From the NCBI GenBank assembly GCA_964016885.1, contig OZ024744.1, positions 88,164,001 to 88,228,000 of the forward strand: a stretch of DNA of 64,000 nucleotides. Direction: 5' to 3'. Under the pieces are notes generated by a model. That model searched no databases and was not told the DNA's origin. It saw nothing but the letters and a program-made list of their open reading frames with translations. The translations under genes and the position numbers were made by a program. The stretch's first letter is position 1, and the number at the start of each line of letters is the position of its first letter. Positions 2,030 through 56,783 of the stretch are shown here, in pieces. This stretch comes from Eledone cirrhosa. Lineage: Eukaryota.

Positions 2030-2337
2030 TCACTCTCTCTCTCTCTCTCTCTTTCCACACACACACATATATATATATATACTTATATATGTATATATAT
2101 ATATAATATATTTAGAAACACACAGATACATGCGGACACACACATATATACATGAATGCATCCGCACCCAACTGTGAGTTAAGGGTGCCAACTTCACCGA
2201 TGTTGCTCAATGAATGACTGGGACAGACCAATTCAGTTGAACTAGACTGAACCAGTATCAGAGTTAAAAATACATTCGCCTTTTGGGATTCTTTCTCACG
2301 TCGTGTAGACGCGTTCTTAAGACTAGTAAAATGAGGT

Positions 2338-2429
2338 ATCCTCTTGATAAGTCGGCAGACCTCGCAAGGACTCTATATCTTTATGATATATTGTTTTTGT
2401 TTATGCCACGAAACTACGTAGTCGAGGAA
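2338..2429 (+). ncRNA. Type I hammerhead ribozyme, U3-A8 core variant
   Basis: TCCTC-TTGATAA-GTCGGCA...TGCCAC-GAAAC-TACGTA-GTC-GAGGA. Stem I TCCTC/GAGGA, stem II GT(C)GGCA/TGCCAC, palindromic stem III ACTACGTAGT. Predicted cut after 2423. Confidence 0.8.
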
Positions 2430-2932
2430 TTTAGGAGCAGTTTAGGTATGATACATTTTATTACTAATTATATCTAAATGTTTCTTCTCTCTTCATAATG
2501 TATTTTTAACTCTGATACTGGTTCAGTCTAGTTCAACTGAATTGGTCTGTCCCAGTCATTCATTGAGCAACATCGGTGAAGTTGGCACCCTTAACTCACA
2601 GTTGGGTGCGGATGCATTCATGTATATATGTGTGTGTCCGCATGTATCTGTGTGTTTCTAAATATATTGTTAATAACTCCCTCTGGTCGAGCAATCTTTG
2701 AAGTGTGGGGACAGCTGGAAAGCTTCCATTACTCATACTTCTCGCCTTCTTCACCACCTCTTCTACGACCTCGATATAGATACCCCCTCCGCCTCCGTGG
2801 TATTTTCTTCGGGGTTATAAGAGGCTTAGCTCTGTTTCTCGACCGTTATATCGCGTGATTATCTCCTCCTCCGCCTTTTGGGATTCTTTCTCACGTCGTG
2901 TAGACGCGTTCTTGAGACTAGTAAAATGAGGT

Positions 2933-3024
2933 ATTCTCTTGATAAGTCGGCAGACCTCGCAAGGACTCTATATCTTTATGATATATTGTTTTTGTTTATG
3001 CCACGAAACTACGTAGTCGAGGAA
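2933..3024 (+). ncRNA. Type I hammerhead ribozyme, U3-A8 core variant (second repeat copy)
   Basis: TTCTC-TTGATAA-GTCGGCA...TGCCAC-GAAAC-TACGTA-GTC-GAGGA. Predicted cut after 3018. Confidence 0.8.
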
Positions 3025-3092
3025 TTTAGGAGCAGTTTAGGTATGATACATTTTATTACTAATTATATCTAAATGTTTCTTCTCTCTTCATA

Positions 3093-3138
<46 letters not shown>

Positions 3139-3228: not shown

Positions 3229-3272
<44 letters not shown>

Positions 3273-3312
3273 GAATATAAATATTAATAAAATAGATGTT
3301 CTTTTGATCAAT

Positions 3313-3371
3313 TACATTTTATTATACATATTTCGGATGTACAACAGTACGTCCTCCTCAGACAAAATATA
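3313..3371 (-). ncRNA. Type I hammerhead ribozyme in PLE pseudo-LTR
   Basis: Minus strand: TATATTTTGT-CTGAGGA-GGACGTAC-TGTT-GTACATCC-GAAA-TATGTA-TA-ATAAAATGTA. Confidence 0.8.
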
Positions 3372-4768
3372 ATGATACATGACATACCCTGAGATGTTAA
3401 ATGGTTAAGATTTAATCAAGGTAGTGATTAACCTAAGAGAAAATTTAACATTTATACCCTAATAATGAGAAAATGCGAAAACGTAATAAATTCAATAGAG
3501 AATATGTGAGTAAGAAAAACGTTGCTTAATGTACCAGTTATCGAGATTTTAATATGTATGATACTACAATTTATATAGGAAAGCATTTCATGAATTATAA
3601 CAGTCAGTGAGAGAAGGGGAGTAATGTATGCAGAAGGAGATTTTTTTCCGAAAGTTAAACGGATAAGTTTGAAAATATTTAATTTATGTTATCTTAGGGT
3701 GAAGAATCAATAGTTTAGGTGTTTTTTTTAAATTGGTGATTATTTATATATTAGTTTTGTAAATTTTACAAGTGTGTTAACATTTCTAAGTTTCTGAATT
3801 ATTTGATGATAAGATTTAAAGGGTTTAGCTGGCCACTATTAAGGAAAGTTTACACTGTTGAATATTTTCCTAAATGTAATCTTTAATGATGTCAGTTATT
3901 GTCAATGTATTAGGTATGTAAAGCTTTTGAAGTACTTATTGTTATAAAAATGTAAATAACGGTTATGTATATAGATATATATTAATTAATTAATGAGCCA
4001 GTATATTTTAGGTAAATGATAATGAAAATAAAATTAAAATAAAATAATAGATTGAGGCATGTTAAAACTAAATATATACCCATATATAACCACGTGTACA
4101 TGTATTAATTATTCCTATCTCAAAGTAAAAACAATAAAAAAATTTAGAAGTTAACTGAAAATTATGTATATAAAGATACTTGGGAGTTATATATGGATAT
4201 ATCTTATATTATGTATTAGTGATACAGTATACTTTAGGTAAATGATAACGATTAGAATTTTATATAATAAAGTTCTACGTGTTAAAGTTAAATACATATA
4301 TATATATATAAGAAAAACAATAATAAATGTATGGATAATTCATAGTTCGAAATAATGTTTATAATAGTTTGTAATTTGGATATTTGCTCCATATTTGAAT
4401 CATGGATATAAGAATGCGGTAGGTATATTTAAAAACATAGAAAATATAATTACATGCACATTATAAATAAGAGATCAGAAACGCATGAAAAATTCACAGT
4501 TATAAATAAGTTCAGTAAAGATGTAAGGGTTGGATACAAAACTCAGATTTAAAACTTAAGTAGGAAGATAAGGATAGAGAAATAAAGAAATAACGGTATG
4601 GATCAAAGTTAACAGAATAATGTTATGTGTATCAATCTTCCGGCATGTTATTGAACAAGTGTCTTTCATTCGAGCGTTATTTCTTCTACAGATAGTTATA
4701 AGATAGTGCAATATTAAAAGCCACTAAAGTTTTCCCCTGTTGATTTTATACGTCTGACAACCAAATTT

Positions 4769-5500
4769 TTAATGGTTTAATGTTTCTCTCTCTTTTTTTT
4801 CTCTCGTTTTGTGGGAGGCTAAGAATGTGGATGTAGCTTTGTGGAGGCAACTATAGAATAATTCACTTTTTTTGTTAATTAGGGTCTCGTAGTTATTAAT
4901 AATCAACAGGATCTCCATTGTACAGAGTGCGCAGTTATTTGATACACTAGAGTTGTGGTAAACTCCACAGTTCCGAAGTTTTGTCCAAAGAATGGAGTAT
5001 TTTAAATTCTTCTCTTTTAATGACCATATGAGCTGTGATAAAGACGTGGATGATTTCCTCTTTGAGTTCGATAATGAGCATTTATGGTTCGCAAATCTGG
5101 CTTTAAAAGTGGAAGAAGTGGATCCTATGTAGTTGTAAGTATTGTGATCTGTTTTTACGGTGCATTTATAAACCAAATTACTATCTAAACAATTATTTTG
5201 CAAAGGGCAATCAGTTTTATTTCTACAATTACATTTAGGTTTAGTATCATTTATGTTAACTCTATTATTAATATCATTATGCTGATTTTGTTTTAGGATT
5301 TTAGTGTTTAATTTGGCGATGTTTTGGGCCATGTTACTGGTTGTAGAATATGAGAATTTAATGGTATGTCTATTAAAAATGGTATGTCTATTACAAATGT
5401 TGAGTAGGGAAAGAAGTGTCAAGAGCTTTAAAGAATAATTTTGCGATTGGTGTTTTGATTGCGACAGAAGCAGGGGGGGGGGGCAAACCATATGACTGTT
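4769..5500 (-). pseudogene. PLE linker plus GIY-YIG endonuclease, frameshifted, RT domain absent
   Basis: IFNRHTIKFSYS...CNCRNKTDCPLQNNCLDSNLVYKC...YIGSTSSTFKARFANH...LSQLIWSLK...CALCTME...INKKSELFYSCLH. Upstream VIWFAPP and IKTPIAKLFFKALDTSFP motifs are in other frames (shift at the G-run 5473-5483 and at a short duplication near 5360-5395). Confidence 0.85.
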
Positions 5501-5793
5501 TAGTTCTAGTTCTTATCCTCGATTTATTTGGCGTATGGGTGTTTGAATTATAATTAGTAGAGTTTCCTTTATATATGTTATTATTTTTATTAAGATTAAT
5601 AGTTGGATTATTATTATATACATATTCTATGTTATTCGTATATCGTTTTTCTTACTCACACATTCTCTATTGAATTTATTACGTTTTCGCATTTTCTCAT
5701 TATTATGGTATAAATGTTAAATTTTCTCTTAGGTTAATCACTACTTTGATTAAATCTTAACCATTTAACATCTCAGGGTATGTCATGTATCAT

Positions 5794-5852
5794 TATATGT
5801 TGTCTGGTGAGGACGTACTATTGTACATCCGAAATATGTATAATAAAATGTA
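5794..5852 (+). ncRNA. Hammerhead motif, probably inactivated core (CTGGTGA)
   Basis: Inverted copy of 3313-3371 with A6 changed to G. Confidence 0.6.
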
Positions 5853-5988
5853 ATTGATCAAAAGAACATCGATTTTATTAATATTTATATTCTAATATTA
5901 ATAACTCCGGAAAATTATTTTACCGTAGAGTGCTTCCAATCTACTGTAAAACTCATTCTTTGACATACTCATAGAATATTGTTTAACT

Positions 5989-6031
<43 letters not shown>

Positions 6032-6072
6032 CAAGATATTAATAATTGGAGATATTCACGTAATCAAAATAT

Positions 6073-6140
6073 ATATTTTATTATATATATTTCGGAGGTA
6101 CTGTGCTGTTTTTTCAGTACGTCCTCATCAGATAAAATAC
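6073..6140 (-). ncRNA. Type I hammerhead ribozyme (canonical core)
   Basis: Reverse complement of 6257-6324. Confidence 0.8.
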
Positions 6141-6256
6141 ATAAATTGATGTATGACATACCCCACCTGTGCTGATGGTTCAATTCCAGTCTTGCAGACT
6201 GCCAAGGCTGGAATTGAACCATCAGCACAGTTGAGGTATGTCATACATCAATTTAT

Positions 6257-6324
6257 GTATTTTATCTGATGAGGACGTACTGAAAAAACAGCACAGTACC
6301 TCCGAAATATATATAATAAAATAT
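6257..6324 (+). ncRNA. Type I hammerhead ribozyme (canonical core)
   Basis: GTATTTTAT-CTGATGA-GGA(C)GTACTG...CAGTAC(C)TCC-GAAA-TATATA-TA-ATAAAATAT. Confidence 0.85.
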
Positions 6325-6466
6325 ATATTTTGATTACGTGAATATCTCAATTTATTAATATTTTGAATAATATTAATAACTTCTGAAAACCTCTTTGTTG
6401 AGTGCTTTTAATCTATTGTAAAACTATATTCATTGAGTAATCAATGAACCTAGTTTAACATTTGGG

Positions 6467-7187
<721 letters not shown>

Positions 7188-10459: not shown

Positions 10460-11625
10460 ATGTCAGACGCATTGACTTGTTTTCTATCTGCTTGCATAAA
10501 TTCCATAAAACATTTCACAAAGTATACAGCTAATATTCAATTCTTTATCAATTTAGAATCTTTTTTCTCAAAGGCATATATATATACACTTCTTTTAAAA
10601 ATATACCCATCTTTCTACCTTATTTCAAAGGTTATTATACATTCTATAATACTTGTTTACTCATTACTCTTACTCTATATCACCTTGTAAAAATCCTTCG
10701 TAAACATATACATTTTTTTTGACGCTAGATTATTCATCCTCAATTCATTATTCTTTTCTCCCTATCATCTAACTCATTATTCTCAATACATATTAACATT
10801 TTCTTTTTCTTCGCACATATTATCAAATTCTTCAATATACAAACCTTAACTTTACATTATTTTTTTCTCTTCGTTAATTTTCAAATTCTATAATACTTGT
10901 TTACTCTTTCTACATCACCCATATTTCTCACTTCCTTTTCCTCTCTTCTAATATCTAACCCCTAATCTGTACCTTTTCTCACTCTTGCCTAACATAGAAT
11001 CAATTATTACATAATACAACACATCTTACTCTATATCACCTTGTAAAAATCCTTCGTAAACATATACATTTTTTTTACGTCAGATTATTCATCCTCAATT
11101 CATTATTCTTTTCTCCCTATCATCTAACTCATTATTCTCAATACATATTAACTCTTTCTTTCTTCGCACATATTATCGAACCCCTCAATATACAAAGCTT
11201 AACTTTACATTATTTTTCTCTTCGTTAATTTTCAAATTCTTTTAATTTATACATTATCTTCCAACGGTTTTCAACTCTATGTAAAACAATATATCTTTCT
11301 CAGTTATAAAAGCTATCTCTCCTCCTATCTCCTCCTTCCTCATTATACTCCTCCCTCTCCACCTTCACTCTCATCTCCTTCTTTTTTCATCCTTTCCACC
11401 CCACCCCCCTCTAAATAAAATATTTTTCCCAATATCACACATCAATCTAAAACTACTTCTCATATGTTGATTTAAAACTGAACTATCCACAAGTGTTTTT
11501 TAACCTTCATATCATGTCCTCCTGTTTTATCTGATGAAAACACAAATATTATTGCATGAAGATATTTGTTTTTGAAATGCGCATAATAAAATACATGGAA
11601 CTCTTTTAACCATCTTTTGTTCTTA
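10460..11625 (+). mobile_element. AT-rich element with an internal duplication of about 220 bp (10669-10889 vs 11026-11240) and a 3' hammerhead
   Basis: The direct repeat is visible, a hammerhead lies at 11523-11593, and TA tracts flank the element. Confidence 0.6.
11523..11593 (+). ncRNA. Type I hammerhead ribozyme
   Basis: TGTTTTAT-CTGATGA-AAA(C)ACAAATAT...ATATTTGT-TTTT-GAAA-TGCGCA-TA-ATAAAATA, with palindromic ATGCGCAT. Confidence 0.85.
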
Positions 11626-19011: not shown

Positions 19012-19610
19012 GCGGTGGATTGGCAGTATCGGTAGAGGGTCAGACGCCATGCTTTGCAGCATTGTGTTACGGCCCTTTATGATCTGAGTTCAAATCCCGT
19101 CGAGGTTAACTTTGCCTTCATCCTTACAGGGTCGATAAAATAAAGTACCAGTAATGCACTGGATAATTGATGGCCTTGTGCCTAAAGTAGAAACAATTTA
19201 TTATTTGCAGTATCGGTAGAGGGTCAGACGCCATGCTTTGCAGCATAGTGTTACGGCCCTTTATGGTCTGAGTTCAAATCCCGCCGAGGTTAACTTTGCC
19301 TTTCATCCTTACGGGGTCGATAAAATAAAGTACCAGCAATGCACTGGGTAATTGCTGGCCTTGTGCCAAAAAGTAGAAACATTTATTTACTTCATTGGCA
19401 GAATCTGTAGAGCGTCGGACAACTTGTTTTGCAACATAAACTTACGGCCCCTTTACATTCTGATTTTAAATCCTGCAGAGATTAGCTTTGCCTTTTATCC
19501 TTACGGTGTTGATAACATAAAGCACCATTAATGCACTGGGGTTGATTTAATCGATTTCCCCCTCCCCTAAAATTGCTAGCCATGTGCCTATAGCAGAAAC
19601 AGTTATTTAC
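19012..19610 (+). mobile_element. Head-to-tail trimer of octopus-type tRNA SINE
   Basis: Units start at about 19012, 19205 and 19395, each with A/B boxes and the GTTAACTTTGCCTTTCATCC core (third unit diverged). Confidence 0.9.
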
Positions 19611-23561: not shown

Positions 23562-23680
23562 TTACACACAGCACTAGACAGAATTGCTTCCACATCATTC
23601 ATTCTCATCTCGGGAACAATTTTGAATGGCGCCAGTTCGTGATTTGAACTCGGGAATTTTATATTCTCCGAGCGAAAAGA

Positions 23681-23765
23681 ACCTTCTGACGAAAGTCTTC
23701 CTTTTCAATGGATTTCCGTATGGATTATCCATTTATTTCGAGACTTGAAACCGTACGGTAAGGGT
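23681..23765 (+). ncRNA. Type I hammerhead ribozyme
   Basis: ACCTT-CTGACGA-AAGTCT...AGACTT-GAAAC-CGTACG-GTA-AGGGT, with palindromic ACCGTACGGT. Lies in an island of about 260 bp between TA tracts. Confidence 0.88.
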
Positions 23766-23990
23766 AATTACAGCAGGTACAGTGAACTTTTTAAAATTAA
23801 TTTGCTAAACCTTGATTATATATATATATATATATATATTTAAAAACATAGAGATGTGACACACAAGTTGTGATATATTAGTAAAAAGGAAAAGAAAATG
23901 GTGACAGATTTTTCCCAGTGAAAATTAGTTTAATTAGGAATAAGTATAAATTAGTAATAAGTATTGGTTAGTATTCAGTTTTAGTTTTAA

Positions 23991-24171: not shown

Positions 24172-24229
24172 GGGAAGGACTGTCCTGAGGAAGACCAGTT
24201 AAGCCTGAAATGCATAGACGGTTGTTCCC
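24172..24229 (+). ncRNA. Type I hammerhead ribozyme
   Basis: GGGAA..ACTGTC-CTGAGGA-AGAC-CAGTTAA-GCCT-GAAA-TGCA-TA-GACGGT..TTCCC. Extended stem I, palindromic ATGCAT, one mismatch in stem II. Confidence 0.75.
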
Positions 24230-26564: not shown

Positions 26565-26599
26565 CCTTTTGAAAAGCAGAACTGCGAAACCGGTAAAGG
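26565..26599 (+). ncRNA. Minimal hammerhead ribozyme, U3-A8 core variant (family J)
   Basis: CCTT-TTGAAAA-GCAG-AA-CTGC-GAAAC-CG-GTA-AAGG, with palindromic ACCGGT. Element spans about 26533-26738. Confidence 0.7.
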
Positions 26600-56720: not shown

Positions 56721-56783
56721 TATTTTATTATACATATTTCAGAGGTACTGAGCTAACTTCAACCGTCCTCATCAGATAAAATA
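56721..56783 (-). ncRNA. Type I hammerhead in a PLE pseudo-LTR fragment (3270-5991 / 6025-6466 group)
   Basis: Minus strand: TATTTTAT-CTGATGA-GGA...TCT-GAAA-TATGTA-TA-ATAAAATA. Confidence 0.75.

Follow-up and report, generated by a model that had tools for sequence, protein, structure and literature searches.

A young, high-copy, noncoding hammerhead repeat in Eledone cirrhosa that inserts in the manner of Penelope-like elements

Layout of the locus

Near one end of a 64,000-nt window of Eledone cirrhosa contig OZ024744.1, a short stretch carries two tandem hammerhead motifs beside an inverted arm, and the question that it raises is what kind of element this is, from which template it was copied, and which enzyme wrote it into the genome. 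The first-pass annotation of the window had described two 227-nt copies of a segment, B, spaced 595 nt apart, and these are indeed present at 2277-2503 and 2872-3098, with 2 mismatches confined to 2319/2914 and 2340/2935. The inverted arm was likewise found to be a perfect inverted copy, but it does not start exactly past the end of B, as had been stated: the 172 nt at 2105-2276 are the perfect reverse complement of 2497-2668 and overlap the final 7 nt of B. The (TA)n noted at the border of the element lies on both sides of the insertion. The absence of a credible open reading frame also held, the longest stop-free frame in a natural trimer being 87 aa. Target site duplications are unreadable within (TA)n and were suggested by eye only at two other loci (L031 and L059), and an LTR pair was absent from the examined insertions. 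In the numbering used here, unit position 1 is window position 2504, position 595 is 3098, and the predicted cut follows position 515.

2067..2104, no strand: left (TA)n-rich target flank
2105..2276, minus strand: inverted arm of 172 nt, bounded on its outer side (2105) by the distal fixed end, at unit position 165 (= 2668)
2277..2503, plus strand: "B1," first monomer, 5'-truncated (unit positions 369-595)
2339..2428, plus strand: hammerhead 1, predicted cut after 2423
2424..3018, plus strand: predicted unit-length RNA, cut to cut
2504..3098, plus strand: complete 595-nt monomer (unit 1-595); 3098 is the proximal fixed end
2504..2668, plus strand: PLE-type "tail," 165 nt, spanning the two fixed ends, with two hairpins
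2677..2691, plus strand: 15-nt motif, 8 nt past the distal end; candidate RT-binding element
2757..2767, plus strand: conserved blocker strand (predicted), complementary to the cleavage-site strand 3012-3022
2934..3023, plus strand: hammerhead 2, predicted to cut after 3018, its helix I made weaker by a C-to-U change at 2935 that is private to this copy
3099..3130, no strand: right (TA)n target flank

A minimal-type hammerhead ribozyme

An independent motif scan recovered the type I hammerhead that had been read in each B copy, with the same predicted cuts after 2423 and 3018. The parts of hammerhead 1, all on the plus strand, are as follows.

2339-2343/2424-2428: helix I, 5 bp
2344-2350: core, UUGAUAA
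2351-2357/2404-2409: helix II, bulged, with a 46-nt structured insert
2410-2413: GAAA
2413-2422: palindromic helix III

The UUGAUAA core has U3:A8 in place of C3:G8, and helix III is a 10-nt palindrome, ACUACGUAGU, that offers 3 bp as a monomer and a duplex of -12.9 kcal/mol as a dimer. The canonical features are lacking, a 5-bp helix I and the 46-nt helix II insert standing where a canonical hammerhead has its loop 1-loop 2 contact, and a search of the whole window against Rfam at gathering thresholds gave no match. A U3:A8 variant, a short helix I, a bulged helix II, and a palindromic helix III are what PMC4209133 describes for the minimal hammerheads of Penelope-like elements (PLEs). Judged from these sequence features, the ribozyme is of the PLE minimal type rather than the canonical retrozyme type. 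Minimal hammerheads of this type cleave weakly in vitro (PMC4209133), and eight of nine predicted Xenopus retrozymes showed no cleavage; as the ribozyme is a weak PLE-type variant, plain in vitro transcription may give little cleavage. The active local fold lies 1.1 kcal/mol above the minimum in copy 1 and 5.0 kcal/mol above it in copy 2, which carries the private change in helix I. Helix I is intact in 130 of 138 sampled ribozymes, and the UUGAUAA-GAAA-UC core is present in 132 of 138 two-half regions, these regions having been chosen by motif similarity.

Family size and subfamilies

The element is genuine, young, and abundant. The 3.0-Gb genome contains 7,444 exact matches to a 24-nt segment of the ribozyme and 0 to the reversed control, which disposes of the possibility, named at the outset as fatal to a retrozyme reading, that the locus is a single-copy local duplication. 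Full units with 99% identity lie on many contigs (39 scored of 1,052 candidates). Exact junctions between position 595 and (TA)n number 2,481, read-through junctions 4,651, and forward-strand matches to the distal-end junction 1,039 (the reverse-strand count is inflated by overlapping matches); as the initial 54 Mb of contig 1 hold about 50 insertions, we estimate by extrapolation some 3,000 dispersed insertions genome-wide. The insertions are short head-to-tail arrays in (TA)n, with fewer than one to about five monomers per arm; most units are 595 or 591 nt long, with a GC content of 41% and an identity of about 98.6% among young units. Adjacent monomers of an array are nearly identical, and whole insertions are occasionally duplicated together with their flanks (L053/L056).

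An older subfamily, found via a loose end in one sequencing run, is 74 to 80% identical across the whole unit. A comparison of the majority sequences of 5 young and 6 old units gives agreement at 79% of the 595 positions; in the helices and core of the ribozyme, 44 of 44 positions agree, and in the helix II insert, 33 of 46. The two longest runs invariant between the subfamilies are the two ribozyme halves, although runs of 22 nt occur elsewhere too.

Six sequencing runs of unrecorded kind contain the unit, none of the runs listed for it being recorded as RNA, and in the four that were examined, contigs span all of it; a head-to-tail joint is visible in runs X1 and X6, and run X4 gave a single 620-nt contig. 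Since the kind of run is unrecorded and tandem DNA would look alike, these runs do not bear on expression. A search of the literature, mostly without subscription papers, found no cephalopod or Hydra-linked retrozyme and no haplotype or pairing tests; the family may already stand catalogued in Dfam or Repbase.

Insertion ends and the tail rule

Permuted endpoints, for which a BLAST comparison of genomic copies had been proposed, were not found: the ends are two fixed sites, 165 nt apart. We scored an unbiased set of 49 loci, obtained by grouping the first 100 ribozyme matches of the listing into clusters and dropping the flank-sharing duplicate L056; cluster L020, which also has one end of each kind, was counted with the best-hit set. 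Twenty-four of these loci are two-armed and head-to-head, and 21 of them pair end 595 with an end at 164-170; the remaining 3 have a noncanonical end, and none has two alike ends. The 25 one-armed loci end at 595 in 12 cases and at about 165 in 12, with a deletion in 1. On the assumption that the two sites are used evenly, 21 of 21 one-of-each pairs among canonical ends corresponds to a p of ~1e-6. In the best-hit set, 14 of 17 copies are one-of-each (15 if one cut by the locus edge is included) and one is 595/593; in the old subfamily, whose sample is biased toward tail-bearing copies, the figure is 26 of 30, with one 595/595. Two-armed 595/595 copies number two, outside the unbiased set, and they count against a strict rule.

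Coding PLEs of the same genome behave similarly. In PLE-B, 11 of 15 two-strand loci are clean one-of-each and the other 4 are complex or imperfect, with no alike ends, and all four PLE-A loci follow the end rule; the tails of the coding elements are about 60 and 100 nt. Published PLE tails are 30 to 40 nt long and often present at one end only (PMC8557442; PMC3846280), and in vitro a PLE reverse transcriptase (RT) cuts and extends both target strands, the tail being the span between two internal starts (PMC11167929). By comparison of sequences, then, the one-of-each ends are the "tail" signature of PLEs, and we have little doubt that the element is mobilized as a nonautonomous PLE. From the strict pairing of ends, we infer a single RNA-protein complex on which the two primers act. 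The first-pass annotation had read the inverted arm as contiguous with the end of B on a circular map; this contiguity is the PLE tail and partly incidental, as the tail arm extends past the end-of-B point in 26 of 36 two-armed copies.

Two other regularities were considered for the arms. Correlated arm lengths were not supported (rho = -0.05, n = 36), and simple fold-back accounts for at most 4 of 36 copies, those with matching inner ends, and not for the window locus. At L089 (4705-4765), the arm junction carries about 60 nt of a tandem 11-mer derived from the unit, which suggests repeated slippage while the arms were joined. The 5' ends of one-armed copies cluster at unit positions 261-328 (17 of 33), possibly because of an internal promoter or an RT stop. 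A TATA-like box, changed in the window copy but set within TATAAATA in 42 of 75 units, and two CCCCCTCCGCC-like repeats, at 2775-2793 and 2865-2875 of the window, sit at this cluster.

Template of an insertion

Within an insertion, copies share their haplotype. At 12 polymorphic sites scored across 71 young loci, two copies of the same insertion match in 782 of 785 comparisons within an arm and in 532 of 537 comparisons across arms, whereas 66% would be expected if copies were independent. Alleles private to a locus are present in every copy there in 25 cases (as many as 8 copies, with 15 of the 25 spanning both arms), are confined to one copy in 98, and are found in a subset of copies in 2, and a 22-nt deletion is carried in both monomers of one array. 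Such sharing implies one monomer's worth of sequence, read repeatedly, and a single-monomer template is strongly favored.

Measured downstream from the predicted cut, the distances to the two fixed ends are 80 and 245 nt; the arms continue across the cut, and of 109 inner ends just 1 is located within 510-522, around the predicted cut at 515/516. The template is therefore not a cleaved linear monomer. Most simply, the pattern would be explained by a ligated circle; the haplotypes require a monomer bottleneck and leave the junction of such a circle unplaced. That the circle was made by the ribozyme is probable.

Predicted RNA fold

The sense strand of the predicted 595-nt circle folds with a z score of -6.7 and the antisense strand with one of -1.5 (60 shuffles). 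Covariation is modest: an alignment fold of 12 related sequences contains 5 compensatory pairs, in a structure derived from those same 12 sequences; changed cells number 21 versus 9.6 in shuffles, and the count of pairs is not above that in shuffles (290/500). The two tail hairpins within 2504..2668 show compensatory changes between subfamilies. Helices I and III have a probability of at most 0.04 in 12 of 12 predicted circles, because the conserved strand 2757-2767 pairs with the cleavage-site strand. This strand is present in exact or near form in 70 of 75 units and is predicted to block the ribozyme within the circle. Such blocking has been noted in plant retrozymes and viroids, and most animal retrozymes are described without it (Cervera and de la Pena). 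A helix in which the two fixed ends face each other was seen in a local fold, yet of 12 whole-circle ensembles just 1 contained it; it was also nonspecific in the old subfamily and in PLE-B and is rejected for now.

Candidate enzyme donor and a shared 15-nt motif

The 15-nt motif at 2677-2691 is present in 75 of 75 full units. It recurs 6 nt past the distal end in all 3 read-through PLE-A copies found, within the 5' UTR, and 3 nt past the distal end in 4 copies of an unrelated second noncoding hammerhead family (~500 nt); among 85 nonfamily loci (418 kb, both strands), these 7 are the only matches, so that all known positions lie 3 to 8 nt past a distal end. In a comparison picked after the match had been seen and using the best of three PLE-A copies, 8 and 3 of 20,000 shuffles scored as well for PLE-A, and 2,161 and 14,213 did so for PLE-B. 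The motif is a candidate RT-binding element, and the RNA required by a purified anole PLE, which reaches beyond the start sites (PMC11167929), fits a binding element placed there. Apart from the motif, BLAST found no alignable homology between the unit and PLE-A or PLE-B. Of two ribozyme patterns searched for, one that kept helix III but had a canonical core gave no match, and one that combined the U3:A8 core with a short helix II recovered nothing but a deletion variant of this family; neither led to a coding relative.

PLE-A carries RWR, DKT (in the L155 frame), and CxCx5C motifs, with a GIY-YIG domain at its C terminus, and targets (TA)n; it is assigned to the Hydra clade by agreement with a published motif description rather than by a tree. 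No intact PLE-A open reading frame was seen, stop-free frames reaching at most 563 aa in 12 loci and at most 642 aa among 150 matches, which counts against PLE-A as a contemporaneous active donor. Even so, we lean toward a Hydra-type PLE as the donor. PLE-B has 38,439 first-look candidates, with 96 to 98% amino acid identity among nearly all of 150 matches; its frame is up to 1,167 aa long (L171, 2688-6191), resembles RT/GIY-YIG clusters, and includes, before the RT, a low-complexity stretch rich in asparagine and histidine, and the element also inserts in (TA)n. Its CxxxxCxxC linker, compared with PMC8557442, suggests that PLE-B is Neptune-like. Five PLE frames had no Pfam match, and a PDB search returned one weak GIY-YIG match (E = 0.42).

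Proposed mechanism and rival explanations

The copy number, the end rule, and the haplotypes together support the original proposal, in which a PLE that targets (TA)n copied a recent retrozyme-like unit from RNA in circular or concatemeric form. On balance, we consider it likely that this is a young insertion of an RNA circle that was cut by the ribozyme, ligated, and copied by such a PLE, likely of the Hydra clade. The arrays would be transcribed, and tandem hammerheads, probably as dimers and with help from a protein, would cut after GUC to give 595-nt monomers. A host ligase would close these monomers, and the fold of the circle would block the ribozyme. The RT/GIY-YIG protein of the PLE would bind at or near the 15-nt motif, cut both (TA)n strands, and prime one cDNA per fixed site, both on the same RNA. 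Rolling-circle copying would then give arms of fewer than one to about five monomers, and the two cDNAs would be joined head-to-head, or just one would be completed.

The main rival to a ligated circle is a linear, uncleaved transcript on which the RT, at the 5' end, switches by homology to the terminal repeat and so generates multimers, the hammerhead being kept for another role. In the one PLE that has been purified (PAc), the ribozyme works only with protein and insertion does not require the ribozyme, which counts against the circle; unprocessed RNA was the main substrate there and ribozyme mutants were still inserted (PMC11167929). With strand transfer, too, a single copy would be the source of most of the unit, and the cluster of one-armed 5' ends near the TATA-like box is what a transcription start might give, although it coincides also with TA microhomologies and GC-rich hairpins. 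We nevertheless consider homology-driven switching unlikely, as the ribozyme positions are invariant despite 21% divergence, the blocker strand is conserved, and alleles shared by a subset of copies are scarce (2 versus 25). A change of donor alone, with the same element and mechanism served by PLE-B, which is young and Neptune-like, or by some unsampled PLE instead of PLE-A, would agree with the youth, the 1,167-aa open frame, the (TA)n target, and the end rule of PLE-B; however, PLE-B lacks the motif, which PLE-A and the second noncoding family have at the matching position, and we regard this variant as improbable.

Two further readings would do without an RNA circle. Solo PLE terminal pieces could have become tandem by unequal crossover or conversion in the manner of minisatellites (10.64898/2026.07.22.740005), and the near-identity of adjacent monomers and the occasional duplication of whole insertions with their flanks would be expected in that case; yet the arrays are dispersed through the genome, remain short, begin at fixed ends, and break off mid-unit, private alleles extend to inverted arms in 15 cases, and the conservation of structure is strand specific, leaving this origin very improbable. 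The ribozyme type, tail, and target of the unit are those of PLE termini, as they would be if B were the pseudo-LTR of a longer coding PLE known from 5'-truncated copies, an objection foreseen in the first-pass annotation. What lies upstream of the unit, however, is re-entry into itself, up to five times; in BLAST comparisons of ~118 insertions (a few percent of all), none runs into nonunit element sequence, the best tblastn E value of four PLE proteins against three natural arrays was 0.96, and no coding PLE body stands beside the examined copies. We find the pseudo-LTR reading scarcely credible.

Relation to known systems

Like the unit, metazoan non-LTR retrozymes (PMC7229834; 10.64898/2026.07.22.740005) are noncoding tandem repeats with one type I hammerhead each, a GC content below 50%, a self-paired predicted circle, no LTR, and coexisting PLEs. 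The unit length of 591 to 595 nt compares with 150 to 450 in PMC7229834 and falls within the 51 to 972 of 10.64898/2026.07.22.740005. The retrozymes of PMC7229834 have hammerheads of the canonical loop-loop type, whereas that of the unit is of the PLE type, with U3:A8 and a long helix II insert; the definition in 10.64898/2026.07.22.740005 admits minimal hammerhead types. The predicted blocking of the ribozyme within the circle resembles plant retrozymes and viroids and differs from most animal retrozymes. Plant LTR retrozymes have type III hammerheads in LTRs, with a PBS and a PPT, whereas the unit has type I hammerheads and no LTRs. The unit also shows every part of the PLE insertion signature, together with a motif suggestive of a partner, features that such repeats lack according to PMC7761336.

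With PLEs (PMC8557442, PMC3846280, PMC11167929), the unit shares partial-tandem and head-to-head inverted insertions, a one-end tail, and the (TA)n target, as well as a minimal palindromic hammerhead including the U3:A8 variant (PMC4209133); it differs in having no open reading frame with RT and GIY-YIG and in its tail of 165 nt versus the published 30 to 40 nt. The nonautonomous PLEs of Chlamys, e.g., MRC1 (PMC8557442), are like the unit noncoding, multicopy, head-to-tail, and moved by PLEs; Chlamys elements mostly lack hammerheads and the nonautonomous ones resemble the 3' end of their partner, whereas the unit has a conserved hammerhead and shares a short motif only. By its sequence, the unit would thus resemble a non-LTR retrozyme, a class defined by a circular RNA in vivo, in the structural features compared, apart from the canonical ribozyme type, and it inserts like a PLE. 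The class and its proposed PLE origin have already been published; a U3:A8 family with the PLE insertion signature appears to be new within it.

The enzyme of animal retrozymes is a hypothesis from co-occurrence and terminal homology (PMC7229834; 10.64898/2026.07.22.740005), and the origin of tandem, inverted, and tailed PLE insertions is given as unresolved (PMC8557442, PMC11167929). The family described here is a small, abundant, and young substrate with measurable rules, namely, start-site pairing and one haplotype per insertion. It offers a specific candidate cis element and a partner clade, and both questions become testable using one purified protein and a short RNA. Developers of RNA-templated insertion tools would also take an interest in a minimal RNA written into (TA)n by a PLE protein. 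A broader proposition, which we put forward tentatively and hold at slightly less than even chances, is that a guild of viroid-like circular RNAs, with at least two unrelated families (~595 and ~500 nt), parasitizes Hydra-clade PLEs via the shared 15-nt cis element, and that the insertions record, in thousands of instances, two-site priming at both ends of a cut (TA)n tract and rolling-circle copying of one circle. If true, it would provide genomic evidence for a circular intermediate and a named enzyme donor of an animal retrozyme.

Other elements in and around the window

A second high-copy (TA)n family, with 2,278 candidates, is represented at 23562-23817 of the window and at L223-L237. It has its own hammerhead with a CUGACGA core and a palindromic helix III, an apparent unit of ~500 nt, and a 116-nt tail; no coding sequence was seen inside it, and from its sequence features it is probably another retrozyme. 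Downstream of the element described here, a two-armed Hydra-type PLE-A insertion occupies 3266-5990, with a tail of ~100 nt at one end only, and at 6030-6470 a related PLE subfamily is represented by a short insertion, likewise two-armed, that has one short and one tailed end.

Near 3323-3361, minus strand: PLE-A hammerhead
4769-5512, minus strand: PLE-A GIY-YIG frame
Near 5805-5845, plus strand: PLE-A hammerhead with a mutated core
6082-6131, minus strand, and 6266-6315, plus strand: identical hammerheads of the 6030-6470 PLE insertion

The fragment at 1-1330 had no Pfam match, and its FFKPTDSHSYL...HP motif resembles what we take to be the C-terminal RT/thumb region of a different PLE. A repeat of ~184 nt at 1430-1720, in tandem at 19019-19540 and also flanking many of the examined loci, is presumably an abundant SINE-like element. 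The scan returned more hammerhead-like motifs at 11531-11585, 24185-24216, 26569-26595, and 56729-56775, each in a different sequence family, and the one at 26569 has a U3:A8 core.
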